Positions 5,800 through 47,548 of a stretch of 48,743 nt of DNA are shown here, piece by piece. Each line of letters opens with the position of its first letter. The stretch's first letter is position 1. The notes under the pieces were generated by a model that saw only the letters and a program-made list of their open reading frames with translations, did not search any database and had not been told where the DNA came from. Source of the stretch: Clostridia bacterium (GTDB lineage Bacteria; Bacillota; Clostridia; Christensenellales; CAG-314); contig JAFVQA010000068.1 in assembly GCA_017505015.1 (NCBI GenBank), positions 1 through 48,743 of the forward strand. The letters run 5' to 3'. The translations under genes and the position numbers were made by a program.

Positions 5800-5862
5800 T
5801 AACTTTGTTGATATGGTAGTTTTATATGGATAAAATGCAACCAAAACAACATAATTAAAAAA

Positions 5863-5960
5863 CACGCAAAATCACATGCCACAGCCACGGCAGATATCTG
5901 CCAAGTGCTTGGCAATGTATTGCGAGTGGATTAACAGCACAATTTATCGTTTTTTAATGA
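5863..5960 (-). repeat. palindrome-cluster repeat P, copy 1
   Basis: GGCAGATATCTGCC (5889-5902), CCAAGTGCTTGG (5901-5912), GCAATGTATTGC (5912-5923). Aligns with 11113-11210 (about 78 percent over a 65-nt core, hand count). Confidence 0.65.
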
Positions 5961-6026
5961 AAAAATTAAAATACAAAAAGGCTTTGTTAAAGCCAAAAAA
6001 ACGGAGTATTTAATATAGTGACTTAA

Positions 6027-8609: not shown

Positions 8610-10574
<1,965 letters not shown>

Positions 10575-11112
10575 TTATATTGAAAATTATTTTTTCTGAT
10601 TTTAAAGCACAGCAAACTGACTTAAAAATGACAGTTGCTTTGCATTTTTTGATTGCTTTTTAAAAATTTTTTCTAAAAATAATAAATTATTTTTAACGGG
10701 GTCGCAATCTACCCCACTATGCAATGCTATTATATCACAATTATACCTTTTTTGGCTCGTATTTTTGCCACATAGTGCCAAAAAATTTTAAAACTTTTTT
10801 ATATATGCCCTTTTTAGCCCTAAATTTGCCCTATAAACGAAAAACAATGGCACGTCACCACAAAATAACGGAAAACTTTTCGTTTTTGTTTTTGTCAATA
10901 TGCTTTTTTTGTTTTGTGTGTTGCAAAAACCACACGAAAAATCATGCCTGAAAAAACCTTATATTTAAAAAATCCTTAATTTTTAATATTGCAACTTTTT
11001 TTAAAAAAACGCAACGTAATGAAGTTTCACCCGGTTAATATAAGCGAAAAAATGACTAATAAAAAGTTACTATTTGATATGTATAAAATTAGTCAAAACA
11101 AAAAATAATAAA

Positions 11113-11210
11113 AGCACAAAAACACCTGTCACAAGCATGGCATATATCTGCCATATGCTTGGCAATGCATTGCAAATGGCTTTTCAGCACTTTTTGTCAA
11201 TTTTTATCAA
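11113..11210 (-). repeat. palindrome-cluster repeat P, copy 2
   Basis: GGCATATATCTGCC (11139-11152) and GCAATGCATTGC (11162-11173). Same order and orientation as copy 1, again just downstream (on the - strand) of a terminator. Confidence 0.65.
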
Positions 11211-11286
11211 AAAAATAAAAACGTAAAAAATTTAAATTTTTCAATCAAAAAAGGGAAGAAATATCTCCCCCCCTCTTTATTTTAAT

Positions 11287-12393: not shown

Positions 12394-12400
12394 ATATTTT

Positions 12401-12409
12401 ATTATATCA
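12401..12409 (-). promoter_or_regulatory. extended -10 element TGATATAAT placed 7 nt from the recF ATG (possible leaderless mRNA)
   Basis: Reverse strand reads TGATATAAT-AAAATAT-ATG. No SD before recF. Confidence 0.35.
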
Positions 12410-12485
12410 CATCGTTTTGTTATTTCTATATTTTTATGTCATTTATTATTTTTTTGTTTTTTATTATCACTCCGTGGGGCATAAA

Positions 12486-12515
12486 AAAAGACGCAGTAAA
12501 AACTACGTCTTTAAA
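12486..12515 (-). terminator. intrinsic terminator after dnaN
   Basis: GACGTAGT-TTTT-ACTGCGTC stem (one mismatch) followed by T7 on the reverse strand. Confidence 0.6.
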
Positions 12516-13643: not shown

Positions 13644-14063
13644 AAAATATCCTCTTTTATAAACAAATTTTTATTTTGATTTGTTTTTGTTAAAACAATT
13701 TATAGTTTTTATAACAAAAAATGACTTTTTTGACGAAAAACATAAAAAAATAAAATTTTTTTTGAGTTAGTTTATATATCAAAAAAGCAGTTGCAGTAGT
13801 AGGGTGTGTTAAAATGTGGATAGATTTTTTAAAAAAACGCAACCTTCACTGACTAAATACATTATAAACGATTTGGCAGAAAATGGCAACACAATATATA
13901 GTTTTTAAGGCCTTTTTAAAAACAAAAATGAACTGTTGAAAACCACCTTTTTTTGTGTTGATAAGGTTGTGTTTTTTGTGTGGAAAAAGGTGTGAAAAAG
14001 TGTGTTTTAACGCAAAAAACTGCCGTTTAAAAAACTTGCTTTTATTTTTTTTTCGTGTATAAT
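13644..14063. other. candidate oriC (A/T-rich unwinding region plus DnaA-box cluster) at the coding-strand switch
   Basis: All genes to the left are on the - strand and all genes to the right on the + strand. 13650-13795 is almost pure A/T. DnaA-box-like 9-mers cluster at 13815-13999. Confidence 0.5.
13815..13999. promoter_or_regulatory. DnaA-box-like sites (8/9 matches to TGTGGATAA)
   Basis: TGTGGATAG 13815-13823, TGTTGATAA 13956-13964, TGTGGAAAA 13979-13987, and a weaker TGTGAAAAA 13991-13999. Confidence 0.45.
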
Positions 14064-14378
14064 GGCACTTACAAAGTGCCCAAAAGTTGGCTCTGTATGG
14101 AGTGCAGTTGTTTTACAAAACTTTTATGGTGCTAATAAGTTGCATAAGACAAATAAAACTGACTTTATATAAAGCTTGTTTACAAAAACTTTGTAGAGTT
14201 TTTGTCGCACTTTTATAAAGTGCGTGTTTAACCCACGAAAAATTTTTAGCATTGCAAATGATAAAAGTTTTTCGTTCTGCTAAAAATAAAAATAAATATA
14301 ACAAACGAAACTTTATACATAATGAAACAATATAACAAGCCATACCGTTGCACACTTGTTAAGTGTGCCCACGGAGTG
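14064..14378 (+). repeat. composite intergenic element E, copy E1 (upstream of dnaA)
   Basis: Starts with GGCACTTACAAAGTGCC and ends with GCACACTTGTTAAGTGTGC-CCACGGAGTG. 14081-14144 matches 20589-20652 at 61/64. 14217-14277 matches the reverse complement of 15924-15984 at 56/61 (hand counts). Confidence 0.8.
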
Positions 14379-15772: not shown

Positions 15773-15810
15773 AGCACTATGAAAGTAAAAACTTTTGTAG
15801 TGCTTTTTTT
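15773..15810 (+). terminator. intrinsic terminator after dnaA
   Basis: AGCACTA-18 nt-TAGTGCT followed by T7. Confidence 0.6.
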
Positions 15811-15814
15811 ATGC

Positions 15815-16224
15815 CACTCTGTGGGGCAGGGTTTCACAAACCCTGCACAAACAGTATAGCTTATTAATTTATTTTGTTGGTTTTATAATTTTTTGTTTTT
15901 ATATTTATTTTTAACTTTAAACGGAACTAAAAACTTTTATCATTTTTAATGTTAAAAATTTTTCGTGAGTTAAACACGCACTTTTTATGCATGCCACGAG
16001 TAGAATTTTTGTTAATGTAATATAGCAAGTGCCAATTTGTAAATAAAATTAATACGAGTAAAAGTGCGACAAAAACAGTAGTAATATCAATTTATCAGCA
16101 CTTGCTGGGTTTTATAACAAACATTTTATTCGTTGTTTTCTCTGCAAATTGTTAGCACTATAAAAGCCTTATGTTACAACTGTGCCATATACTGTGCTTA
16201 CTTTTTTGGCATTTTATAAATGCC
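15815..16224 (-). repeat. composite intergenic element E, copy E2 (inverted, downstream of dnaA)
   Basis: Begins next to dnaA with CACTCTGTGGGGC (reverse complement of the E1/E3 terminal motif). Contains the 61-nt core 15924-15984 and an inverted, diverged copy of the 64-nt block (about 16150-16200). Ends with GGCATTTTATAAATGCC (16208-16224). Confidence 0.8.
15985..16060 (+). repeat. sub-element S (76 nt) filling a palindrome loop inside E2
   Basis: E2 reads GCACTTT-[76 nt: ..CCACGAGTAGAA...ATACGAGTA]-AAAGTGCGAC. The homologous E1 site is an intact hairpin CGCACTTTTATAAAGTGCG (14206-14224). Confidence 0.7.
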
Positions 16225-16356
16225 CACTTTTTAAGTGCCTTGTGGTTGTAAAACTTTTGACCACAATATGTTGTGTTTTGGTATTTTTTGTGAAAAAAAG
16301 TATATAAAAAAGGTGAAATTATGCACATTTTTGGGGTATGCAAAAAGTTAAATTCG

Positions 16357-19020: not shown

Positions 19021-19156
19021 TTATTTTGTATGCCCACTGTTTTTATAGTGAGCGTATATAATAAATAACAACATTTGCTCGCAGGTGTGCAATCTGCAAA
19101 AAAACAAGCATTAAAAGAGTATAGTTAAACAATATTTATACTGAGCCATACTGTTG

Positions 19157-19173
19157 GGCACTTTTAAAGTGCC
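19157..19173 (+). repeat. CACTT/AAGTG palindrome abutting the mnmE SD
   Basis: GAGCCATACTGTTG-GGCACTTTTAAAGTGCC-GGGAGA-AAACCT-ATG. Same arrangement as upstream of gyrB. Confidence 0.7.
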
Positions 19174-19185
19174 GGGAGAAAACCT

Positions 19186-20487
19186 ATGAATGAAAAAATC
19201 ACAGCAATAAGCACCCCTATCGGCCGTGGTGCAATTTCTATCGTGCGAATGAGTGGTGACGGCGTTATTGACGTTGCCAGACAAATGTTTGCAAAAATGC
19301 CAGATCAACCCGGTTTGTTGCAACTTGGCAAACTTGACGCAGGCGAATTTTGCGACCAGGCAATGTGCGTTTATTTTAAAGCACCAAGGTCATATACCGG
19401 CGAAGATATGGTAGAGTTTCAGTTGCATGGTGGCTATGCCATTGCAAACGGTGTGCTTAAAGCGTGCATTCAAAAAGGTTGCCGTCTTGCAGAAAATGGT
19501 GAGTTTACAAAACGAGCATATCTCAACGGAAAAATTAACCTTTCTAACGTAGAAGGTATTATGGATATGATCGATGCCGAAAATATTGCCGCTGTAGAAA
19601 ACGGATATAAAATGCTTTCGGGCAAACTTGACGGCAAAATAAATTTGTTGCAAGACAAACTCACAGATCTTTTGGCTCAGATAGAAGTTGCGCTTGACTA
19701 TCCAGAAGAAGACCTTGAATTTATAACTAAAGATCAGGTGCAAGACGTTTTGCATTTTGCTATTGACGAAACTCAAAAGCTTTTGGACAGTGCGTCTAAA
19801 GGTCGCATCATTAAAAACGGTGTGGACATTGCAATTGTGGGCAAAACAAACGTTGGCAAAAGTTCGCTCCTCAATGCCCTTGTTGGTTTTGACAGAGCAA
19901 TAGTAACCAACATAGAAGGAACAACACGCGATACCCTCAGTGAAAGTTATATTTACAAAGACGTAAAATTTAACTTTATTGACACAGCAGGTTTGCGTCA
20001 GACAGATGACGTTGTAGAAAGCATTGGCATAGAAAGGTCTTTGCAGGCTGTTGAAAAGGCAGACATTGTTTTGCTTGTGTTTGACGGTGGCGAAATTCCG
20101 CAGGAATATATCGAAATAAAAACAAACCCAAAAACAATTTGCGTGTTTAACAAGGCAGACTTAATGACAAACCCGGACAAAAACGTTTTGTCTGTATCTG
20201 CAAAAACCGGTGAAAACGTAGAACAACTCAAGTCACAGGTTTATGACAAAATAAAGGCTGACAACGTGTCTTCTACCGACGTGGTAATTACAAATGCAAG
20301 ACACATTGATTGCCTGCAACGTGCAAACGACAGCCTTAAAACGGCATTGCAAAACAGTTTTATAACACTCGACTGCATTGCGTTGGAAATTAAAGAAGGC
20401 TGGCAGGCATTGGGTGAAATAACAGGCACAACTGCCAGCGAAGACGTTGTAACCCGCATTTTTGAAAAGTTTTGTGTAGGTAAATAG
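19186..20487 (+). CDS. mnmE: tRNA modification GTPase MnmE
   Basis: ORF track. G1 GKTNVGKSSLLN, G3 DTAGLR, NKADL, C-terminal FCVGK. Confidence 0.95.
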   Translation: MNEKITAISTPIGRGAISIVRMSGDGVIDVARQMFAKMPDQPGLLQLGKLDAGEFCDQAMCVYFKAPRSYTGEDMVEFQLHGGYAIANGVLKACIQKGCRLAENGEFTKRAYLNGKINLSNVEGIMDMIDAENIAAVENGYKMLSGKLDGKINLLQDKLTDLLAQIEVALDYPEEDLEFITKDQVQDVLHFAIDETQKLLDSASKGRIIKNGVDIAIVGKTNVGKSSLLNALVGFDRAIVTNIEGTTRDTLSESYIYKDVKFNFIDTAGLRQTDDVVESIGIERSLQAVEKADIVLLVFDGGEIPQEYIEIKTNPKTICVFNKADLMTNPDKNVLSVSAKTGENVEQLKSQVYDKIKADNVSSTDVVITNARHIDCLQRANDSLKTALQNSFITLDCIALEIKEGWQALGEITGTTASEDVVTRIFEKFCVGK

Positions 20488-20571
20488 TATAAAGAACTAT
20501 ACTTTATATCTGCACAGACCCCCTAGCGATTTTGCTTGCAAAACGCGTCAAAGTTCTGCGTAGGAAAATAA

Positions 20572-20985
20572 CACACTTAAAAAGTGTGCAAAAGTAGGCT
20601 CTGTATGGAGTGCAGTTGTTTTATAAAACTTTTATTGTGCTAATAAGTTGCAGAAGCACGCATTCACGAGTAAAGATTTTGTAAACTATACAAAGAAAGT
20701 GTCACTGTGTAAAAGGTATCACTACGAGTAAAAAGTGTGCAAAAGTATGGCTTTACATACAGTTCAGCTGTAAAACAAAGCCTTTATGGTGCTGTCGGGT
20801 TTTGCATTATTACAAATTTTGCCACGCTTTTTTAAAGCGTGTGTTGAACGTGCAAAAAAGATTTGATATGAAATAGCAAAGATTTTTTGCTCATTAAAAA
20901 AACAAAAATAAAAATATAAAACAAAACAATATAAAAAGCAATACTGTTTGTGCAGGATTTGTGAAATCCTGCCCCACGGAGTGAT
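20572..20985 (+). repeat. composite intergenic element E, copy E3 (upstream of mnmG)
   Basis: CACACTTAAAAAGTGTG, then the 64-nt block (20589-20652), an S-filled palindrome, a diverged second block (about 20745-20800) and CACGCTTTTTTAAAGCGTG. Ends with ATACTGTTTGTGCAGGATTTGTGAAATCCTGCCCCACGGAGTG, which is almost identical to the reverse complement of 15815-15860. Confidence 0.8.
20662..20730 (+). repeat. sub-element S (about 69 nt) filling a palindrome loop inside E3
   Basis: GCACGC-[ATTCACGAGTAAAG...58-nt spacing...CTACGAGTA]-AAAAGTGTGC. Confidence 0.65.
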
Positions 20986-29751: not shown

Positions 29752-29773
29752 TTGATTTTTAAAAACAAAACAA

Positions 29774-29804
29774 AAAGCACGGATATTTTCCGTGCTTTTA
29801 TTTT
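29774..29804 (+). terminator. intrinsic terminator after ftsH (GCACGG family)
   Basis: AAGCACGG-ATATTTT-CCGTGCTT followed by TTATTTT. Confidence 0.75.
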
Positions 29805-30096: not shown

Positions 30097-30113
30097 GATA
30101 CTTAAAAAGTATC
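30097..30113. repeat. empty palindrome GATACTTAAAAAGTATC
   Basis: Perfect 7-bp arms. An S-filled counterpart lies 85 nt downstream. Confidence 0.6.
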
Positions 30114-30188
30114 CAAATGTATGCTTGATATACAGTGTGGTTGAAACACAAAATTTTTTGCTGACAATGAGTTGTTGAGGGATACCTT

Positions 30189-30255
30189 CACGAGTAAAAC
30201 GTGTGTAAACAACGCACAGCAAGGGCTTGTTTGTTGACAAAACCACTTCGAGTTA
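30189..30255 (+). repeat. sub-element S (about 67 nt) filling a GGATACCTT/AAGTATCC palindrome
   Basis: GGATACCTT-[CACGAGTAAAACGTGTGTAAA...58-nt spacing...CTTCGAGTTA]-AAGTATCC. Confidence 0.6.
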
Positions 30256-30389
30256 AAGTATCCAATAGTATGGCTCAGTGTGGTTGCAACATTAAAAAAC
30301 AAGCCCCTGTGGTGCTGACAGGTTGCAGAAATTGCAACCGAATATCAAAAAAGAAAAAAACTTGCACAACAGTTGCAAAGAGGTGCTAT

Positions 30390-33300
30390 ATGAAAAAACT
30401 TTTTAAAAAATTTAATCTTTCAATAATTTCACTGGTGTTTGCACTGACACTTTGTTTTGGTGGCATTGCTTTGTCAGCCCCAAAAAAGGTTGATGCAGCA
30501 GAATACGTAGCGCAAGCAAACAGCACGCAATACGTCACTTTGCAAGAGGCTTTTGCCAGCGCCACAGACGGCGTGCAGACAAACATAAAACTGCTTGCCG
30601 ACGTAACGACAACCGAAATTATTCAAATCGCAGCAGAAAAAAACGTGGTGTTTAATCTTAACGGTTTTAACCTTATAAACCCAAACGATGGTGTTTTTAG
30701 AATTTTAGGCACGTTTTGCATTAAAGGCAACGGCTCTGTCAAAGGCGCGTCAGAAGGTGCAACAATCAGCACAATAAACGTTGGTCAAACAGGCACGCTT
30801 GTTCTTGAGGGTGGCACAATTACATCACTGGGCGGAACAGGAAACAGATGCATTTATTCACAGGGCACTGTTACAATAAAGGGTGGCAGTATAGAAAACG
30901 GTTCGGCAGAGAATGGCGGTGGCATCTATAGCAGTGGCACACTCACAATAAACGGTGGCACAATATCAAACAACAGAGCAACCGGAGGTGGTGGCATTTT
31001 TTCACAGGGCACACTCACTATAAATGGTGGCACAATTTCAAACAACACTGCAGACGATGGCGGTGGCATTTATTCTACTGGTGGCACACTCACTATAAGC
31101 GATGGCACAATTTCAAATAACACTGCAAACAATGGCGGTGGCATTTATGCCGTCGGCTATTGCACAGTTGATATAACAAATGGCGCTATCGAACAAAATG
31201 ATGCAGTCAACGATGGCGGTGGCATCTTTTTTGCAAAAGGCAGACTCAAAATGACGGGTGGCACAATTTTGAGCAACACTGCAGGGGGCAATGGTGGTGG
31301 CATTTTTAACGTAAGTGACAACAGCAACACAAACCTAGTAGAAATAGCCGGTGGGTTTATAGAGTCAAACACAGCAGAGGGCAATGGCGGTGGCATTTTT
31401 AACTCCATTGACACATCCAAAGGAAATCTGAGCATAAGTGGCAGTGCAATGATAACAAAAAACCAAAGCAACAATGGTGCCGGCATTTACAACAATGGTG
31501 GTGTCTTTAGTGCGGTTGGTGGCACTGTTTCGCAAAACGTTGCAAAAAGTGGTGGCGGTGGCATCTTTAACAATTATGGCACTCTTGACGTGACAAGAAT
31601 CACAATATCAGGCAACAGTGCAACAAATGGTGGTGGCATTTTTGCTAACAATGGCACTATCAACATCAAATACAACACTTTTATCTCACAAAACACAGCA
31701 AGGTTTGGTGGTGGCGTTTACAGCGATTCATGCGCTGTCACTGTTACTGGTGCAACAATAACACAAAACACAGCGACAGACGAAGGCGGTGGCATTTATA
31801 TTTATATTTATGCAAATGTAGCAAAAACCGTTGATATACAAAAAACAACAATCAGCTCTAACAAAGCAACAAGCCTGGGTGGTGGCATTCATGTCAATTC
31901 GGGCATAGTTAATATAGGCAGTGACGTTTTGATCACAACAAACAGTGCAGAATATGGCGGTGGCATTTTTCTTGAAAAAAATAGCACAATTGCTATAAAC
32001 GGAGCAACAGTATCAGAAAACACTGCAAAATATCAGGGTGGTGGTATTTCTTGCGGTGGAAAAACAACAATTGAAAATGCCACAATCAGCAAAAACAAAA
32101 GTGTGGATGGTGCAGGCATTTTCAGTGCCGGCGAAGTTGAAATAAACAGCACTACTTTTGAAGAAAACATTGCAACAAGTGATGGCGGTGGCGTTTATGC
32201 CAATATAGACATACTCAAACTCAACAGCTGTTTGATATCAAAAAACACTGCATACGACGGTGCAGGCATTTTTAACAAATGCACGCTGACTATTGATGGT
32301 GGCGAAATAACAGACAACATTGCAAAAAACTATGGCGGTGGTGTTTTGAATGACGAGACAGGCACGCTCACTGTGGACAGTGCAACAATATCAGACAACA
32401 CTGCAAGTATTGGTGGTGGCATTTATAACCATGAAGCAGGCATTCTCACTGTTGATGGTGGTGAAATAACACAAAACAAAGCAACTACGGCTGCCGGTGG
32501 CATTTATAACAAAGGCACAGTTGAAATTTTGACAGGACTTGTTTCACAAAACAAAGAAACTAGATATGGCGGTGGCATTTATAACGAAGGCACGTTCACT
32601 GTGACAGGTGGAACAATTTCAGGCAACGAAGCAACAGAATTTGGCGGAGGTGTTTATAATAGTGGCGACCTTACTGTTGAGGGTGCAACAATTTCACAAA
32701 ACACTGCAACGTATAATGGCGGTGGCATTTATAACGAAAGCACACTCACTGTGTCAGGCAGTTCAATTTTAAATAACAGTGCTGTTGATGGTGGTGGCAT
32801 TTATAACTATGGAGCAGGCATTCTCATTGTTGATGATGGTGAAATTTCAGGCAACGAAGCAACGTATGATGGTGGTGGCATTTATAACTATGGCACGGTT
32901 GAAATTTTGACAGGACTTGTTTCACAAAACAGAGTAACCAGATATGGTGGTGGAATTTATAACGCTCCTGACAGAACTGTAACGATATACAACGAAGTAA
33001 CAATTTCAAACAACAGCGCACAATATGGCGGTGGCATTTATAATAGTGGCGAACTTTCTGTTGAGGGTGCAACAATTTCACAAAACACTGCAACGTATAA
33101 TGGCGGTGGCATTTATAACTCTGACACAGTTGAAATTTTTACAGGATATGTTTCACAAAACACTGCAACGTATGATGGCGGTGGCATTTATAACTTTGGC
33201 ACAGTTGAAATTTTGACAGGATCTGTTTCACAAAACACTGCAATGTCTAGTGGTGGTGGTATTTATAACCAAGGTACAGTTACTGTGTCTGGTGGTGAAA

Positions 33301-35702
33301 TTTCAGGCAACGTAGCAACGTATGATGGCGGTGGCGTTTTTAACAGTAGTGGCACGCTCGATGTAACTGGTGGCACAATTTCAAACAACACTGCAACGTC
33401 TAATGGCGGTGGTGTTTATAACCATAGCGAACTCACTGTTGATGGTGGCATCATTTTGCAAAACGTTGCAGAGGCTGGTGGTGGCATTTATAACTATGGA
33501 ACAACAACTCTGGACTCTGGCACAAAGATAAGCAAAAACGAAAGCTCGCTTTCTGGCGGTGGCATTTATAACGATGGCAAAACAACTGTTGATGGTGGTG
33601 AAATAACAGAAAACGTTGCAACTGATGATGGCGGTGGCATTTATAATGATAATGGCGAACTTGCTGTTGAGGGTGTAACAATTTCAAACAACAGTGCACA
33701 ATATGGCGGTGGCATTTATAACAGCACTGGCAGCACTGTAACTGCTGAAAACACAACAGTTTCGCAAAACAGTGTAACGTATGATGGCGGTGGTATTAAA
33801 AATAACGGCACACTCACTTTTGCAAGTGGAACAATTTCAAACAACGTTGCAACAAGAGAAGGTGGTGGCATTTATAACTCTGGCAATAGCATTGCAACTG
33901 TTGAAGACGCAACAATTTCCGACAACAGTGCAGAATATGGCGGTGGCATTTATATCAACAGCAGCAGCACAATCCAACTCAAAGGAGCAACAATTTCAGA
34001 CAACAGTGCATTAAGCGGTGGTGGCATTTATATCAACAGCAACAGCACAATCCAACTCAAAGGAGCAACAATTTTGCAAAACGTTGCAACAGGTGACGGT
34101 GGTGGTATTTATAACAATGGCGAACTCACTGTTGATGGTGGTGAAATAGCCGACAATACTGCACAATTGGGTGGCGGCATTTTTAACTTTAGCAAAGCAA
34201 CTGTCAGCAATGTTTCGATTAAAAACAACGTTGCAAACTTTGGTGCTGACGTTTATAACTTTGCAAATGATACGTTTGAGGCAAGTGACAGCACTTTGCA
34301 ACAGGTGAACAACATGGGCAAGTTCACTTTGGATGGTGGCAGTGTTGAAAGTTTGTTTGTTGAACACGAAAACAGCACTGCAGATATCACAGGACAAGTA
34401 TCAACGGTGTATTTTGTAAATATCCCAGTTCAACCAGTTGTTCTGGACGGTGCAGATTTGCAAAACGAAATAAAGGTGGTTGTTAACGTGAGTGACATTG
34501 CCGATATTGAAGACATTGTTTTGTTTGAAAACTTTGTTTGCAACGACGACCTGTTTGTGTTGCACAAAGGCACTGTTGACAACGCACAACCTGTAAATGA
34601 CTTTTTCTTGATGAAAGACAGTCAAAACAAAGTTGCAGTTACACTTATTGACATTGCGAGAATCAGCGTTGATACACAACCAACAAAAACAACTTATGTT
34701 TACTATGAACCGTTTGAAAAAGACGGCATGGTTGTTTCTGCAACGTATAACAACGGCAAAACAGAGTTGGTTGACATCAACGACGTGGAGATTTTATATC
34801 AGACTTATAGCGACGGTTTCCACCCGACAGACACGGGCGTGACTTTGCAGTTTGTAAATCTTAAAAACAAAAAAATCACTTGCACGGTTGACCTTGTTGT
34901 TGAAAAAGAACAAAATGAAATTTCAGACTTTTTTGCTGGCTGGACTTATGGCGAAAAACCTGGATATGGCTTTGCTGCAGATTGGGTTGAAGAATATGAC
35001 CTTTCTTTTGCAACAAGCCAAAACGGTGTGTATTCAGGCACTGTTCCAACAAATGCAGGCACTTATTGGATGAAAATTTTGGTTCACGAAAGCGAGTTTT
35101 ATTATTCGGCAGAACAAGCCTTTGAGTTTGAAATTGAAAAGGCAGTTGTTTCAAAACCAAAACTCGACAACCAAGCTGTTGTGTATAACGGACAAAAACA
35201 AATTGCAACAATTGAGCAAAGCGATTTGTATACAGCAACTAACGATGGTGGCACAAACGCAGGTGTTTATGTTGTGACATATTCACTCAATGACAAAGCA
35301 AACTACAACTGGTCAAATGGCAATGCAGAAGACCTCTCGTTTGAGTTTGCAATTAAAAAGGCAACTGTAACAATAGGCAACGTTTCAATCACAGGCAACG
35401 TAAGGGGCGAAGATTTGCAGGTTAGTGCAACAAGCAATTTTGGCGATATTCAATATAGCTATGCCAAAAAAGGTGAAAGCAACTTTACAAGCACAAAACC
35501 AACAAAACCTGGCGAATATATCGCAAAAATGACAGTTGCCGGAACAAACAACTTTGACGGTGCAGAAAAAACAGTTGCGTTTGTTATCGAGTCAAAACTG
35601 TTTGCAGGCGAAATAACTGGCATTGTGGCAGGCAGTGTTGCCGTTGCCGGTGGCATTGGCGGTGGCATTTGGTTTTTGATAAAAAAACGCAAACGCATTT
35701 AA
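30390..35702 (+). CDS. giant secreted, membrane-anchored surface protein (1770 aa). About 44 Pmp/POMP-type GGGIYN parallel beta-helix repeats, then Ig-like and MBG-like domains, with a C-terminal TM anchor
   Basis: ORF 30201..35702 trimmed to MKKLFKKFNLSIISLVFALTLCFGGIALSAPKKVDAAEY (signal peptide) behind SD GAGGTG. I counted 44 units of ..NTA..GGGIYN.GTLTV.GG.IS.N. Tail contains TKTTYVYYEPFEKDGMVVSATYNNGK (Ig-like) and YNGQKQ...GTNAGVYVVTY (MBG-like). Ends in GIVAGSVAVAGGIGGGIWFLIKKRKRI, with no LPXTG. Confidence 0.85.
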   Translation: MKKLFKKFNLSIISLVFALTLCFGGIALSAPKKVDAAEYVAQANSTQYVTLQEAFASATDGVQTNIKLLADVTTTEIIQIAAEKNVVFNLNGFNLINPNDGVFRILGTFCIKGNGSVKGASEGATISTINVGQTGTLVLEGGTITSLGGTGNRCIYSQGTVTIKGGSIENGSAENGGGIYSSGTLTINGGTISNNRATGGGGIFSQGTLTINGGTISNNTADDGGGIYSTGGTLTISDGTISNNTANNGGGIYAVGYCTVDITNGAIEQNDAVNDGGGIFFAKGRLKMTGGTILSNTAGGNGGGIFNVSDNSNTNLVEIAGGFIESNTAEGNGGGIFNSIDTSKGNLSISGSAMITKNQSNNGAGIYNNGGVFSAVGGTVSQNVAKSGGGGIFNNYGTLDVTRITISGNSATNGGGIFANNGTINIKYNTFISQNTARFGGGVYSDSCAVTVTGATITQNTATDEGGGIYIYIYANVAKTVDIQKTTISSNKATSLGGGIHVNSGIVNIGSDVLITTNSAEYGGGIFLEKNSTIAINGATVSENTAKYQGGGISCGGKTTIENATISKNKSVDGAGIFSAGEVEINSTTFEENIATSDGGGVYANIDILKLNSCLISKNTAYDGAGIFNKCTLTIDGGEITDNIAKNYGGGVLNDETGTLTVDSATISDNTASIGGGIYNHEAGILTVDGGEITQNKATTAAGGIYNKGTVEILTGLVSQNKETRYGGGIYNEGTFTVTGGTISGNEATEFGGGVYNSGDLTVEGATISQNTATYNGGGIYNESTLTVSGSSILNNSAVDGGGIYNYGAGILIVDDGEISGNEATYDGGGIYNYGTVEILTGLVSQNRVTRYGGGIYNAPDRTVTIYNEVTISNNSAQYGGGIYNSGELSVEGATISQNTATYNGGGIYNSDTVEIFTGYVSQNTATYDGGGIYNFGTVEILTGSVSQNTAMSSGGGIYNQGTVTVSGGEISGNVATYDGGGVFNSSGTLDVTGGTISNNTATSNGGGVYNHSELTVDGGIILQNVAEAGGGIYNYGTTTLDSGTKISKNESSLSGGGIYNDGKTTVDGGEITENVATDDGGGIYNDNGELAVEGVTISNNSAQYGGGIYNSTGSTVTAENTTVSQNSVTYDGGGIKNNGTLTFASGTISNNVATREGGGIYNSGNSIATVEDATISDNSAEYGGGIYINSSSTIQLKGATISDNSALSGGGIYINSNSTIQLKGATILQNVATGDGGGIYNNGELTVDGGEIADNTAQLGGGIFNFSKATVSNVSIKNNVANFGADVYNFANDTFEASDSTLQQVNNMGKFTLDGGSVESLFVEHENSTADITGQVSTVYFVNIPVQPVVLDGADLQNEIKVVVNVSDIADIEDIVLFENFVCNDDLFVLHKGTVDNAQPVNDFFLMKDSQNKVAVTLIDIARISVDTQPTKTTYVYYEPFEKDGMVVSATYNNGKTELVDINDVEILYQTYSDGFHPTDTGVTLQFVNLKNKKITCTVDLVVEKEQNEISDFFAGWTYGEKPGYGFAADWVEEYDLSFATSQNGVYSGTVPTNAGTYWMKILVHESEFYYSAEQAFEFEIEKAVVSKPKLDNQAVVYNGQKQIATIEQSDLYTATNDGGTNAGVYVVTYSLNDKANYNWSNGNAEDLSFEFAIKKATVTIGNVSITGNVRGEDLQVSATSNFGDIQYSYAKKGESNFTSTKPTKPGEYIAKMTVAGTNNFDGAEKTVAFVIESKLFAGEITGIVAGSVAVAGGIGGGIWFLIKKRKRI

Positions 35703-35722
35703 CAACAACTAAACAAAATATA

Positions 35723-35751
35723 AAAGCACGGAAAAACTCCGTGCTTTTTTG
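35723..35751 (+). terminator. intrinsic terminator (GCACGG family)
   Basis: AGCACGG-AAAAACT-CCGTGCT followed by T6. Confidence 0.8.
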
Positions 35752-35784
35752 TTTGCAAAAGTTTGTTTAACTTTGCTTTTACTA

Positions 35785-37768: not shown

Positions 37769-37797
37769 AAAAGCACGGGGTTTCCCGTGCTTTTTTG
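37769..37797 (+). terminator. intrinsic terminator (GCACGG family)
   Basis: AAGCACGGG-GTTT-CCCGTGCTT followed by T-run. Confidence 0.8.
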
Positions 37798-37872
37798 TTT
37801 TGCTTTTGCTATTGCTTTGTTTTGGTTTTATTGTATAATATAACCATAAAACACACACAGGGGGTGAGGTTT

Positions 37873-39507: not shown

Positions 39508-39519
39508 CAAAACAGAACT

Positions 39520-39547
39520 AAAAGCACGAATTTTTCGTGCTTTTTTG
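39520..39547 (+). terminator. intrinsic terminator (GCACG family)
   Basis: AAAGCACGAA-TTT-TTCGTGCTTT followed by T-run. Confidence 0.8.
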
Positions 39548-39592
39548 TTGCAAAAATTTTTGTTGTTTTGCCTTTTATTTTTAAAATAGCTA

Positions 39593-39621: not shown

Positions 39622-39635
39622 GCAACCAACAATAA

Positions 39636-39718
39636 ATACAGGGGAGCTATAAAAAGCTGAGAGGAAGTTTTGCTTCGACCCTTTTACCTGATGCGGATAA
39701 TGCCGTCGTAGGAAGTCA
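39636..39718 (+). promoter_or_regulatory. TPP riboswitch 1 (THI element aptamer)
   Basis: GGGGAGC...GCTGAGAGGAAG...CGACCCTTTTACCTGATGCGGATAATGCCGTCGTAGGAAG matches the conserved THI-box core. Confidence 0.85.
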
Positions 39719-39735
39719 TAACTGGGACTATTGTA

Positions 39736-39764: not shown

Positions 39765-39775
39765 ATGCTTTTAAC

Positions 39776-39858
39776 AACACAGGGGAGCTTGCTTTGCAGG
39801 CTGAGAGGAAGTTTTTCGACCCTTTATCTGACGTGGATAATGCCACCGTAGAGAGTTT
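39776..39858 (+). promoter_or_regulatory. TPP riboswitch 2 (THI element aptamer)
   Basis: GGGGAGC...GGCTGAGAGGAAG...CGACCCTTTATCTGACGTGGATAATGCCACCGTAGAGAG. Confidence 0.85.
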
Positions 39859-39875
39859 TGTTTTTGCTTTTTTAC

Positions 39876-39934: not shown

Positions 39935-39949
39935 CCACTTGAAAAGTGG
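39935..39949. repeat. CACTT/AAGTG palindrome (CCACTTGAAAAGTGG)
   Basis: Same palindrome family as 10528, 14064, 19157 and others. Lies between TPP riboswitch 2 and the third leader element. Confidence 0.5.
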
Positions 39950-44953: not shown

Positions 44954-44991
44954 AAAGCAACACGCATATAACAATGCTGTTTGCAAAAAAT

Positions 44992-45019
44992 AAAAAGCAC
45001 GGAAATCCCGTGCTTTTTT
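44992..45019 (+). terminator. intrinsic terminator (GCACGG family)
   Basis: AAAGCACGG-AAAT-CCCGTGCTTT followed by T-run. Confidence 0.8.
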
Positions 45020-47397: not shown

Positions 47398-47412
47398 TAA
47401 AAAACCAAAATT

Positions 47413-47440
47413 AAAAGACGGCATTTGCCGTCTTTTTTTT
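47413..47440 (+). terminator. intrinsic terminator (GACGG family)
   Basis: AGACGGC-ATTT-GCCGTCT followed by T8. Confidence 0.8.
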
Positions 47441-47472
47441 GTTGTGAAAAAGATACAATAAAAAATATATTT

Positions 47473-47548
47473 CACTTTACTCGAACTGGTGTAGTGTTAC
47501 ACAGAAGCACTTTCTACATATTATTTACACACGCTCTACTCGTAGCGC
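47473..47548 (-). repeat. sub-element S, reverse orientation
   Basis: Reverse strand reads GCGCTACGAGTAGAGCGTGTGTAAA...59-nt spacing...GTTCGAGTAAAGTG. The internal CGTGTGTAAA is shared with the 30189 copy. Confidence 0.55.

Follow-up and report, generated by a model that had tools for sequence, protein, structure and literature searches.

A probable new family of mosaic intergenic repeats, REP- or BOX-like, in the replication-origin region of an uncultured Clostridia bacterium

Several kinds of intergenic repeat offer points of comparison for the elements considered here. The BOX elements of Streptococcus pneumoniae (boxA-boxB(n)-boxC) are a Firmicutes example made of ordered modules, with a variable internal copy number and pairable ends; they lie next to the starts and ends of genes, and effects on neighbouring expression have been reported. 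Correia/NEMIS elements (Neisseria) and bcr1 (Bacillus cereus group) are miniature inverted-repeat transposable elements (MITEs) of 100-400 nt with inverted ends, which are gene-proximal and co-transcribed and can donate promoters or hairpins; every copy has defined terminal inverted repeats and a target duplication (TA, TTTAT). The insertion sequence (IS) IS1397 inserts into the hairpins of repetitive extragenic palindromic (REP) sequences. REP hairpins are also insertion targets for ISPpu9 (PMC8450116), and REPs form the larger arrangements known as BIMEs and REPINs (PMC2817692, PMC3116915, PMC3333891). As summarized in one paper (PMC12306157, citing Liang et al. 2015), about half of one E. 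coli REP set is located within 15 nt of a stop codon, stalling ribosomes. Here we describe repeats found around the replication origin of an uncultured member of the Clostridia (assembly GCA_017505015.1, contig JAFVQA010000068.1; the whole 48,743-nt stretch is called the window below). They include three long composites, E1 (14064-14378, +), E2 (15815-16224, -) and E3 (20572-20985, +), and we think it probable (about 0.6) that these are composite members of a new, lineage-restricted, mosaic family of intergenic repeats, REP/BIME/REPIN- or BOX-like, which, on the best reading, supplies hairpins to untranslated regions (UTRs) only incidentally.

The basic unit of the family is about 86 nt long, and consists of a perfect 7-bp hairpin with a 3-nt loop (GGCACTT-nnn-AAGTGCC) and a 65-nt tail. 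Units were detected with an nhmmer profile and then with a covariance model, R1, of the repeated block. The hairpin is under selection for complementarity: among 24 copies, pairing was kept in 99.4% of 168 cells, with compensatory double changes at four of the seven pairs, zero one-sided changes and zero G-U pairs, and the arms vary in concert (GGCAC/GTGCC, GACAC/GTGTC, CACAC/GTGTG, GATAC/GTATC, GGCAT/ATGCC, GCGAAC/GTTCGC). No other structure is conserved. The tail is conserved in sequence and unstructured (CAACAGTATGGCTC…GCTTTTATGGTGCT…TTGCAGAG, or in fuller form CAACAGTATGGCTCrGTATA…GCTTTTATGGTGCTrAT…TTGCAGAG), and covariation over a wider structure, which an earlier inspection of the sequence alone, in which the elements were first noticed (the sequence-only reading), had suggested looking for, did not materialize: RNAalifold predicted the 7-bp hairpin alone from 18 units, and zero consensus structure from a set of 12. 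Helices proposed by eye for the tail (CAACAG/CTGTTG, GUAU/AUAC, GGCU/AGCC) were neither conserved nor found by RNAalifold, and we have abandoned a structured-RNA interpretation of it. E1 folds more stably than its shuffled versions (z = -5.0 and -4.7 on the two strands), and it does so equally well on both strands, with no asymmetry between them.

The motif CACTTNNNAAGTG occurs nine times in the sequence, against 0.09 occurrences expected, and the 17-nt hairpin is present in at least 26 copies, all of them intergenic. The DNA of the species that was available comprised the window and about 9 kb of adjacent sequence (L104), some 58 kb in all, in which there are 15 units: 11 in the window, where they are located in seven of the 24 intergenic gaps and in no coding sequence (CDS), and four in L104. 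A further two were found in L109, a locus of a sister lineage (MnmE 95% identical), and 12 in metagenome contigs of the JAEIGA and ERZ808048 sets. Units may be single, in inverted doublets or part of long composites. None begins with a foot tetranucleotide of the GTAG kind, their 5' flanks being heterogeneous (TAA, TGA, T-runs, CTCC, CGTGGG).

Where do the units lie in relation to genes? In every case the hairpin end is directed toward the neighbouring gene or terminator. In nine of 26 units the start falls between -2 and +4 nt relative to the stop codon of an open reading frame (ORF) of at least 150 codons on the same strand, and the genes in question are mutually unrelated: those for glutamate dehydrogenase (gdh), fructose-bisphosphate aldolase (fba), an aldo-keto reductase, RlmH, NadE, a PLD-family protein, ArgS, a small unknown gene product and, in L109, MnmE. 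In each of these cases the real terminator is further downstream. The C-terminus of MnmE (FCVGK) is the same in lineages with and without an abutting unit, so the L109 unit is placed exactly at the native stop of mnmE. Another five units begin directly after the T-run of a terminator, two are flush with a Shine-Dalgarno sequence (SD; those of gyrB and mnmE), and several precede promoter-like sites, at positions that would be little transcribed. Units also follow non-coding RNA genes, since in a related metagenome organism (L088, 928-1191 and 1258-1342) there is a unit about 65 nt downstream of the gene for the signal recognition particle (SRP) RNA. The orientation of units shows no replication-strand bias (9 versus 6). 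Thus, the tie to origin-proximal genes suggested by the sequence-only reading dissolves, because the family also follows gdh, fba, argS, nadE, rlmH, the PLD gene and the SRP RNA gene; nor is the alternative of a shared regulatory module in 5' UTRs supported, because most simple units are 3', directly after the stops of unrelated metabolic genes.

E1, E2 and E3 are homologous by blastn and by a repeat finder, as had been proposed, and the 64-nt block shared by E1 and E3, counted by hand at 61 identities, is exactly 61/64 identical in a computed alignment. In these composites, inverted units bound an A/T-rich core with two hairpins, in the order: one or two units, the hairpin hpA, GTGTTKAAC, the long A/T hairpin hpB, an A-rich run and an inverted unit. 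A further module, L (about 70 nt, with ACGAGTAAA at both ends), occurs nested within hairpins, in their loop or 3' arm, and may face either way: in E3 and in a composite at 30.1 kb it interrupts the hairpin of the second unit, and, in the opposite orientation, it interrupts hpA of E2.

E1 starts with a unit at 14064-14148 (+) (90.6 bits in the covariance model, E = 1e-17; also found by nhmmer), with its hairpin GGCACTTACAAAGTGCC at 14064-14080 and its tail ending in GTTGCATAAG. The core (14207-14275, +) has hpA (GCACTTTTATAAAGTGC, 14207-14223), then GTGTTTAAC, then hpB (14235-14275), and the A-rich run extends to about 14335; this core is 79% identical to that of E2 over 138 nt, and 68% identical to that of E3 (blastn). 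A partial inverted unit completes E1 (14283-14378, -; hairpin 14350-14368; covariance-model hit 14283-14367, 48.9 bits). Such an inverted 3' unit is obvious in E1, and degenerate, with a variant 9-bp stem, in E2 and E3. E2, which may be bounded at 16224-15815 or taken as 15815-16237 (-) if all of its tandem hairpins (16237-16208) are included, has a unit at 16224-16139, followed on the minus strand by hpA, split by an inverted L (15995-16063), hpB, the A-rich run and the hairpin hpC. E3 (+) has unit a (20572-20656), unit b (20723-20808) with L (20665-20733) inside its hairpin, hpA' (20823-20841), GTGTTGAAC, hpB' (20852-20890; read by eye, pairing is retained here despite a different sequence), the A-rich run, and a degenerate inverted unit (weak covariance-model hit 20881-20970, -, E = 0.025) with the hairpin hpC (20952-20972). 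E3 is separated from the mnmE stop by a spacer of 84 nt (20488-20571, +), at the end of which is a decayed duplicate of the final 23 nt of mnmE (CAAAGTTCTGCGTAGGAAAATAA, 18/23). This duplicate resembles the real 3' end of the gene in the sister lineage more closely than does that of the window's mnmE; we take it to be, in all likelihood, the relic of a junction at which a unit was flush with the stop. A fourth E-like composite is present in L104 (19100-19560), between an M20 peptidase gene and radC, and here an L-type module is tandemly duplicated (19300-19520; …TTTTACTCGTG…TACTCGAATTTATGTAGAGTTACATATTAGCACTTGCTATGTTATGTTAACATAC…, twice).

The sequence-only reading had listed three full copies and some fragments. 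The three full copies stand, but the extent of the family had been underestimated: the units at 20723-20808, 30097-30180 and 30252-30331 and the L at 47476-47546 had gone unseen. What were taken for fragments are whole or partial units of about 86 nt, some of them inverted, as is also the unit at 14283-14367 (-) within E1. One is a near-full inverted unit upstream of mnmE (19091-19173, -; 73 bits in the covariance model), whose hairpin (19156-19173) directly adjoins GGGAG, the SD of mnmE; another, a partial unit divergent from gyrB (10528-10608, +; 47.2 bits), has its hairpin flush with the gyrB SD AGGAGG on the minus strand, so that the reported contact of the 3' hairpin with both SDs is confirmed on the sequence. 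A third is a minimal doublet of overlapping inverted units (827-924, with 827-887 + and 839-924 -, from nhmmer and the covariance model), which has a terminator (924-967) on one side and, on the other, the promoter region of a minus-strand gene (716-376). The composite at 30097-30331 (+), found by the repeat finder, blastn and the covariance model, is of the form unit-L-unit (L at 30189-30257), and lies 3' of a terminator-like hairpin and upstream of a gene (ATG at 30390) for a 1770-aa surface protein; that protein (30390-35702), which is secreted and has dozens of Chlamydia-PMP-type repeats (GGGIYN…) and a Big_3 domain, dominates the output of the repeat finder. An isolated L module with …ACGAGTA… ends (47476-47546, -; blastn, repeat finder) lies between a terminator and a gene that is trpR-like by Pfam.

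The distribution of the family is narrow. The closest reference species, with DnaA 75-76% identical, are labelled uncultured Clostridia or Christensenellaceae, and in the two closest there are no comparable repeats whatsoever. Units are absent from the roughly 85 loci of more distant relatives that were searched. In 1.53 Mb made up of the dnaA loci of 80 GTDB relatives together with L110, L113 and L114 (the loci of three relatives with MnmE 75-76% identical), there was no hairpin motif, no CCCACGGAGTG (the flank motif described below) and no match by blastn or the model. Orthologous sites in relatives with MnmE 75-76% identical are empty. The gap between mnmE and mnmG, which E3 was correctly said to widen, is 620 nt in the window and 9, about 150 (L004), 64 and 31 nt in relatives (that is, 9-64 nt in most), while the dnaN-dnaA gap is 775 nt compared with 327-450 nt. 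A single scan of metagenomes with the pattern hairpin + CAAnRG…GCT found 21 contigs, of which nine (eight from JAEIGA01 and one from ERZ808048) were genuine at 65-78% identity and the others chance matches. In plasmid, phage and viral collections there was no real match (L108 being a chance hit). The sister lineage differs from the window after mnmE, where it has unit-hpA, with the unit starting at the stop codon itself, in place of spacer-unit-L-unit-hpA, and also upstream of mnmE, where a different 447-nt region contains an array of L plus an inverted unit. To judge from such arrangements, the make-up of modules turns over rapidly between close lineages. Single-nucleotide differences among strains are too few and too clustered for their density in the elements to be compared with that elsewhere.

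The sequence CCCACGGAGTG, which is found just outside the last hairpin as the outermost flank of some composites, needs separate consideration. As CCCACRGAGTG it has four exact copies, and five with at most one mismatch, against 0.49 expected. In E1 it occupies 14368-14378 (+), with the ATG of dnaA (14419) 40 nt further on, and in E3 20973-20983, 124 nt before mnmG (or 76 nt, for an alternative start); an isolated copy (TGCCCCACGGAGTGATA, 12468-12492, -), of which 17 nt are identical to the end of E3, stands directly after the dnaN terminator and TTTTTTTATGCC, and is 74-75 nt before recF. These distances agree with those reported earlier. The claim that the motif end always faces the next start codon is nonetheless wrong, because the corresponding flank of E2 (CCCACAGAGTG, 15825-15815, -) faces the dnaA stop and terminator (15773-15804). 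Neither the fourth E-like composite nor any unit of the JAEIGA metagenome contigs has the motif, and it is probably not a dedicated start-codon signal; possibly it is a decayed mini-hairpin of the form CAC-nnn-GTG. In the window, the position of the GGAG within it is taken at mnmE and gyrB by the true SD. Small ORFs following this GGAG are not conserved between copies.

At recF itself there is a TG-extended -10 (TGTGATATAAT, in 12394-12430, -) that ends 7 nt before the ATG, and no SD, which suggests that the recF mRNA may be leaderless or nearly so.

How does the family compare with the described systems? Like REPs, BIMEs and REPINs, it is based on a short extragenic hairpin with covarying arms, present in many copies in one lineage; its copies alternate in orientation and are joined by linkers, as in BIMEs (E1-E3 and unit-L-unit), or form inverted doublets, as in REPINs (827-924); and, as with REPs, it is frequently placed just 3' of stop codons, a position in which REPs can stall ribosomes or shield the 3' ends of mRNAs. 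Unlike REPs, which are imperfect palindromes of 20-40 nt, its units are about 86 nt long, with a 65-nt non-palindromic tail and a stem that is perfect and of 7 bp; they have no GTAG-type 5' tetranucleotide, their host belongs to the Clostridia, and there is no sequence similarity. With the GTAG foot absent, we do not claim membership in REP sensu stricto. BOX is alike, by description only, as a modular intergenic repeat of Firmicutes found near gene ends, but its modules and sequences are different, and in the present family the same unit occurs in both orientations, with L nested in hairpin loops. The Correia/NEMIS and bcr1 elements differ in that most copies here are single-ended, and no duplication was seen. 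That L, whichever way it is turned, lies inside CACTT/AAGTG hairpins, in the loop or the 3' arm, recalls the insertion of IS1397, ISKpn1 and ISPpu9, although L is tiny and non-coding and the unit-L-unit arrangement has itself been propagated as a block in two organisms. Some copies are in long, hairpin-rich 5' regions of housekeeping genes, as are riboswitches, T-boxes and other leader RNAs, but they match no Rfam family, share no conserved multi-helix structure and have no fixed position or orientation with respect to a start codon. The earlier statement that no known RNA family could be recognized thus holds: in Rfam scans (by gathering score and by E-value) of the window and nine related loci, no element had a match at the gathering score or a hit near threshold, and the best matches by E-value were noise (e.g. 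DUF805, at 19 bits against a 51-bit threshold).

Some further comparisons were discarded. An integron attC-like interpretation (GCCCAAC … GTTG) meets core genes on both strands and a 3' core that does not fit GTTRRRY. For elements of the IS200/IS605 kind, or TnpB RNAs, a fixed 5' target motif is lacking, there is one hairpin per unit, and Rfam gave no hit of the HEARO type. Candidate promoters inside the unit or the A-rich core amount to weak and inconsistent hexamers.

It is the combination of a covarying hairpin, many intergenic copies facing either way, the formation of inverted doublets, the presence of linker modules, confinement to a narrow lineage and differences in modules between close lineages that leads us to regard E1-E3 as members of a mosaic family of extragenic repeats, the anatomy and distribution of which we consider established. 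By what route might such units spread? They may do so as selfish, non-autonomous DNA, probably through a mechanism that recognizes the hairpin, which could be an HUH-type enzyme acting on single-strand hairpins, like that proposed for REPs, or else exchange among the copies by recombination and gene conversion. A classical cut-and-paste MITE mechanism seems less favoured, in view of the single-ended form of most copies and the lack of any visible target duplication. Effects on the host would be a by-product: a hairpin at a stop codon or just 5' of an SD would be co-transcribed, and might then protect mRNA ends or stall terminating ribosomes, by analogy with the stop-proximal REPs of E. coli. 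The composites may also make a minor contribution to 5' UTRs, since they tend to point at gene starts and GGAG takes the place of the SD.

Several observations weigh against a family of mobile mosaic repeats. No target-site duplication is visible at the doublet 827-924 or at E1, and no direct repeat was found in the flanks of stop-adjacent units; there is no transposase or REP-associated tyrosine transposase (RAYT) among the genes called in the species' 58 kb; and four strains that are 99.8-99.95% identical show no indels and no difference in presence or absence of elements. The unit, as noted above, is longer than a REP, with its conserved non-palindromic tail and no GTAG-like tetranucleotide. 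The near-exact placement at native stops is sharper than random insertion predicts, and could reflect a host-selected function or targeting. Four of the five copies of CCCACGGAGTG, including that in L109 (31 nt before the mnmE ATG), are 31-124 nt upstream of a start codon, and the transcription of the units and their effects as RNA are things that we infer. The idea of a mobile cassette, one of the two put forward in the sequence-only reading, is thus borne out in part: the elements are dispersed, modular, present in both orientations, lineage-restricted and absent from orthologous sites, but for transposition there is no target duplication, transposase or strain polymorphism to speak.

Another possibility is that the unit is a functional, rather than selfish, RNA element of 3' UTRs and CDS boundaries, kept flush with stops and SDs by the host to control termination, ribosome stalling or mRNA decay. 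Nine units at -2 to +4 nt from the native stops of mostly highly expressed genes, always in the sense orientation, before the real terminator and with the protein C-terminus untouched, are what it would lead one to expect, as is the strict maintenance of hairpin complementarity, and there is the precedent of stop-proximal REPs (PMC12306157). However, five units come after terminators and others are upstream of promoters, where little RNA is made; both orientations are present; the tail has no conserved structure; zero G-U pairs in 168 cells is unusual for an RNA helix; and the same genes in relatives do without the element. We consider this explanation unlikely. The idea of a classical MITE, an IS deletion derivative that keeps terminal inverted repeats and is mobilized in trans by a DDE transposase from another part of the genome, would fit the 100-420 nt size, intergenic location and lineage restriction of the elements, and the doublets and E composites are indeed bounded by inverted ends of about 30 nt (hairpin + CAAnRGTATGGCT). 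We give it little credence when most copies are single units without an inverted partner, no direct repeats flank the doublet 827-924 or E1, and no IS with these ends is present in the window or in plasmids, phages or viral contigs.

Still less probable, in our view, is that housekeeping genes near the origin share a 5' leader or promoter cassette with a cis-regulatory role, in which the hairpin and CCCACGGAGUG act on the downstream start, e.g. as an SD-like stabilizer. It is true that E1, E3, the L104 composite and the L109 copy point at the starts of dnaA, mnmG, the M20 peptidase gene and mnmE, that the motif contains GGAG in the same position as the real SD at the window's mnmE and gyrB, and that a promoter-like TTGCTT-16-TATAAT abuts E1 (seen by eye, and below the threshold of the promoter scan). 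Yet there is no fixed position or orientation upstream of a regulated start, as such a module would have: E2 faces a terminator, nine units follow stops, both orientations occur, and the distance from motif to ATG varies from 31 to 124 nt. Moreover, the motif copy near recF is upstream of that gene's own best promoter-like site, the L104 composite has no motif, relatives are without the element at their dnaA and mnmG genes, most of the family is found 3' of genes unconnected with the origin, and covarying structure does not extend beyond simple hairpins.

A bearing of the elements on the origin might also be sought at the level of DNA. The window has the gene order gyrA-gyrB-recF-dnaN (all -) and dnaA-rpmH-rnpA-yidD-yidC-jag-mnmE-mnmG-rsmG-parA-parB (all +). 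The cumulative GC skew turns at about 12-14 kb, and near-consensus DnaA boxes at 13815, 13956 and 13979 are all upstream of E1, which indicates that oriC proper is at about 13650-14040 and is not formed by the E elements. A role for the elements in origin function was accordingly rejected, and, with the DnaA-box cluster and skew minimum outside E1, the A/T-rich cores are unlikely to be the unwinding element.

The segment 12493-15802 (dnaN-oriC-E1-dnaA) is inverted compared with all four close relatives examined (L003, L004, L113 and L114), in which recF adjoins dnaA and dnaN adjoins rpmH. At both junctions (12468-12492 and 15803-15825), beside the dnaN and dnaA terminators, CACTCYGTGGGGCA is present as a direct repeat, together with an inverted repeat of 13 nt (GGCATAAAAAAAG / CTTTTTTTATGCC).

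It is conceivable that the palindromes and CAC-nnn-GTG are binding or crossover sites for an origin-associated, nucleoid or recombination protein, and mediated this inversion. The palindromes are perfect, without G-T pairs, the block is inverted in relation to those four relatives, and both junctions have the repeats just described. But the outer stem positions covary instead of keeping one sequence, which favours intramolecular pairing over recognition of half-sites, copies occur far from the origin and in other contigs, and the repeats at the junctions are of short length and consist in part of T-runs from the terminators. We rate this about as improbable as the leader. A bolder proposal, which we regard as unlikely, would join two of these ideas: that the unit seeks CDS boundaries, hairpin first, at native stops (-2 to +4 nt, in nine genes, leaving the C-terminus unchanged), SDs or T-runs, through an undescribed mechanism of gene-end targeting or as a host-exapted, genome-wide module of translation termination or mRNA decay, and that the ends of E composites (CACTCYGTGGGGCA) served as the crossover sites that inverted the dnaN-oriC-dnaA block.

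Some other features of the window are recorded here. A second, unrelated repeat is present in two copies (5853-5979 and 11103-11229; about 83% identity when 5830-6000 is aligned with 11080-11250), just downstream of the gyrA and recF stops (-), and contains GGCAGATATCTGCC and AAGTGCTTGGCAATG. The gyrB-recF gap (767 nt) has no ORF and no Rfam hit. Tandem thiamine pyrophosphate (TPP) riboswitch aptamers (39630-39731, 64.5 bits; 39771-39871, 62.5 bits) are located upstream of the next genes, with a hairpin, CACTTGAAAAGTG, 3' of them (39936-39948). Intrinsic terminator hairpins form small sequence families with near-identical stems: one, AAAAGCACGG…CCGTGCTTTT, has five copies (29766-29804, 35717-35755, 37769-37803, 39515-39550 and 44983-45017), and another, AAAGACGG…CCGTCTTT, has two (924-967 and 47401-47444), with more in L104.

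What had appeared to be a leader of origin genes becomes a dispersed repeat family, and this may serve as a guard against the over-annotation of regulatory RNAs in metagenome-assembled genomes of Clostridia. The R1 model, with its hairpin and tail, can be used to mask or track the repeats, and the family explains the greater part of the unusually expanded intergenic DNA near oriC in this lineage. If the stop-flush placement were indeed functional or targeted, the units would provide a Firmicutes counterpart of stop-proximal REPs, and a handle on how hairpin repeats choose the boundaries of genes.

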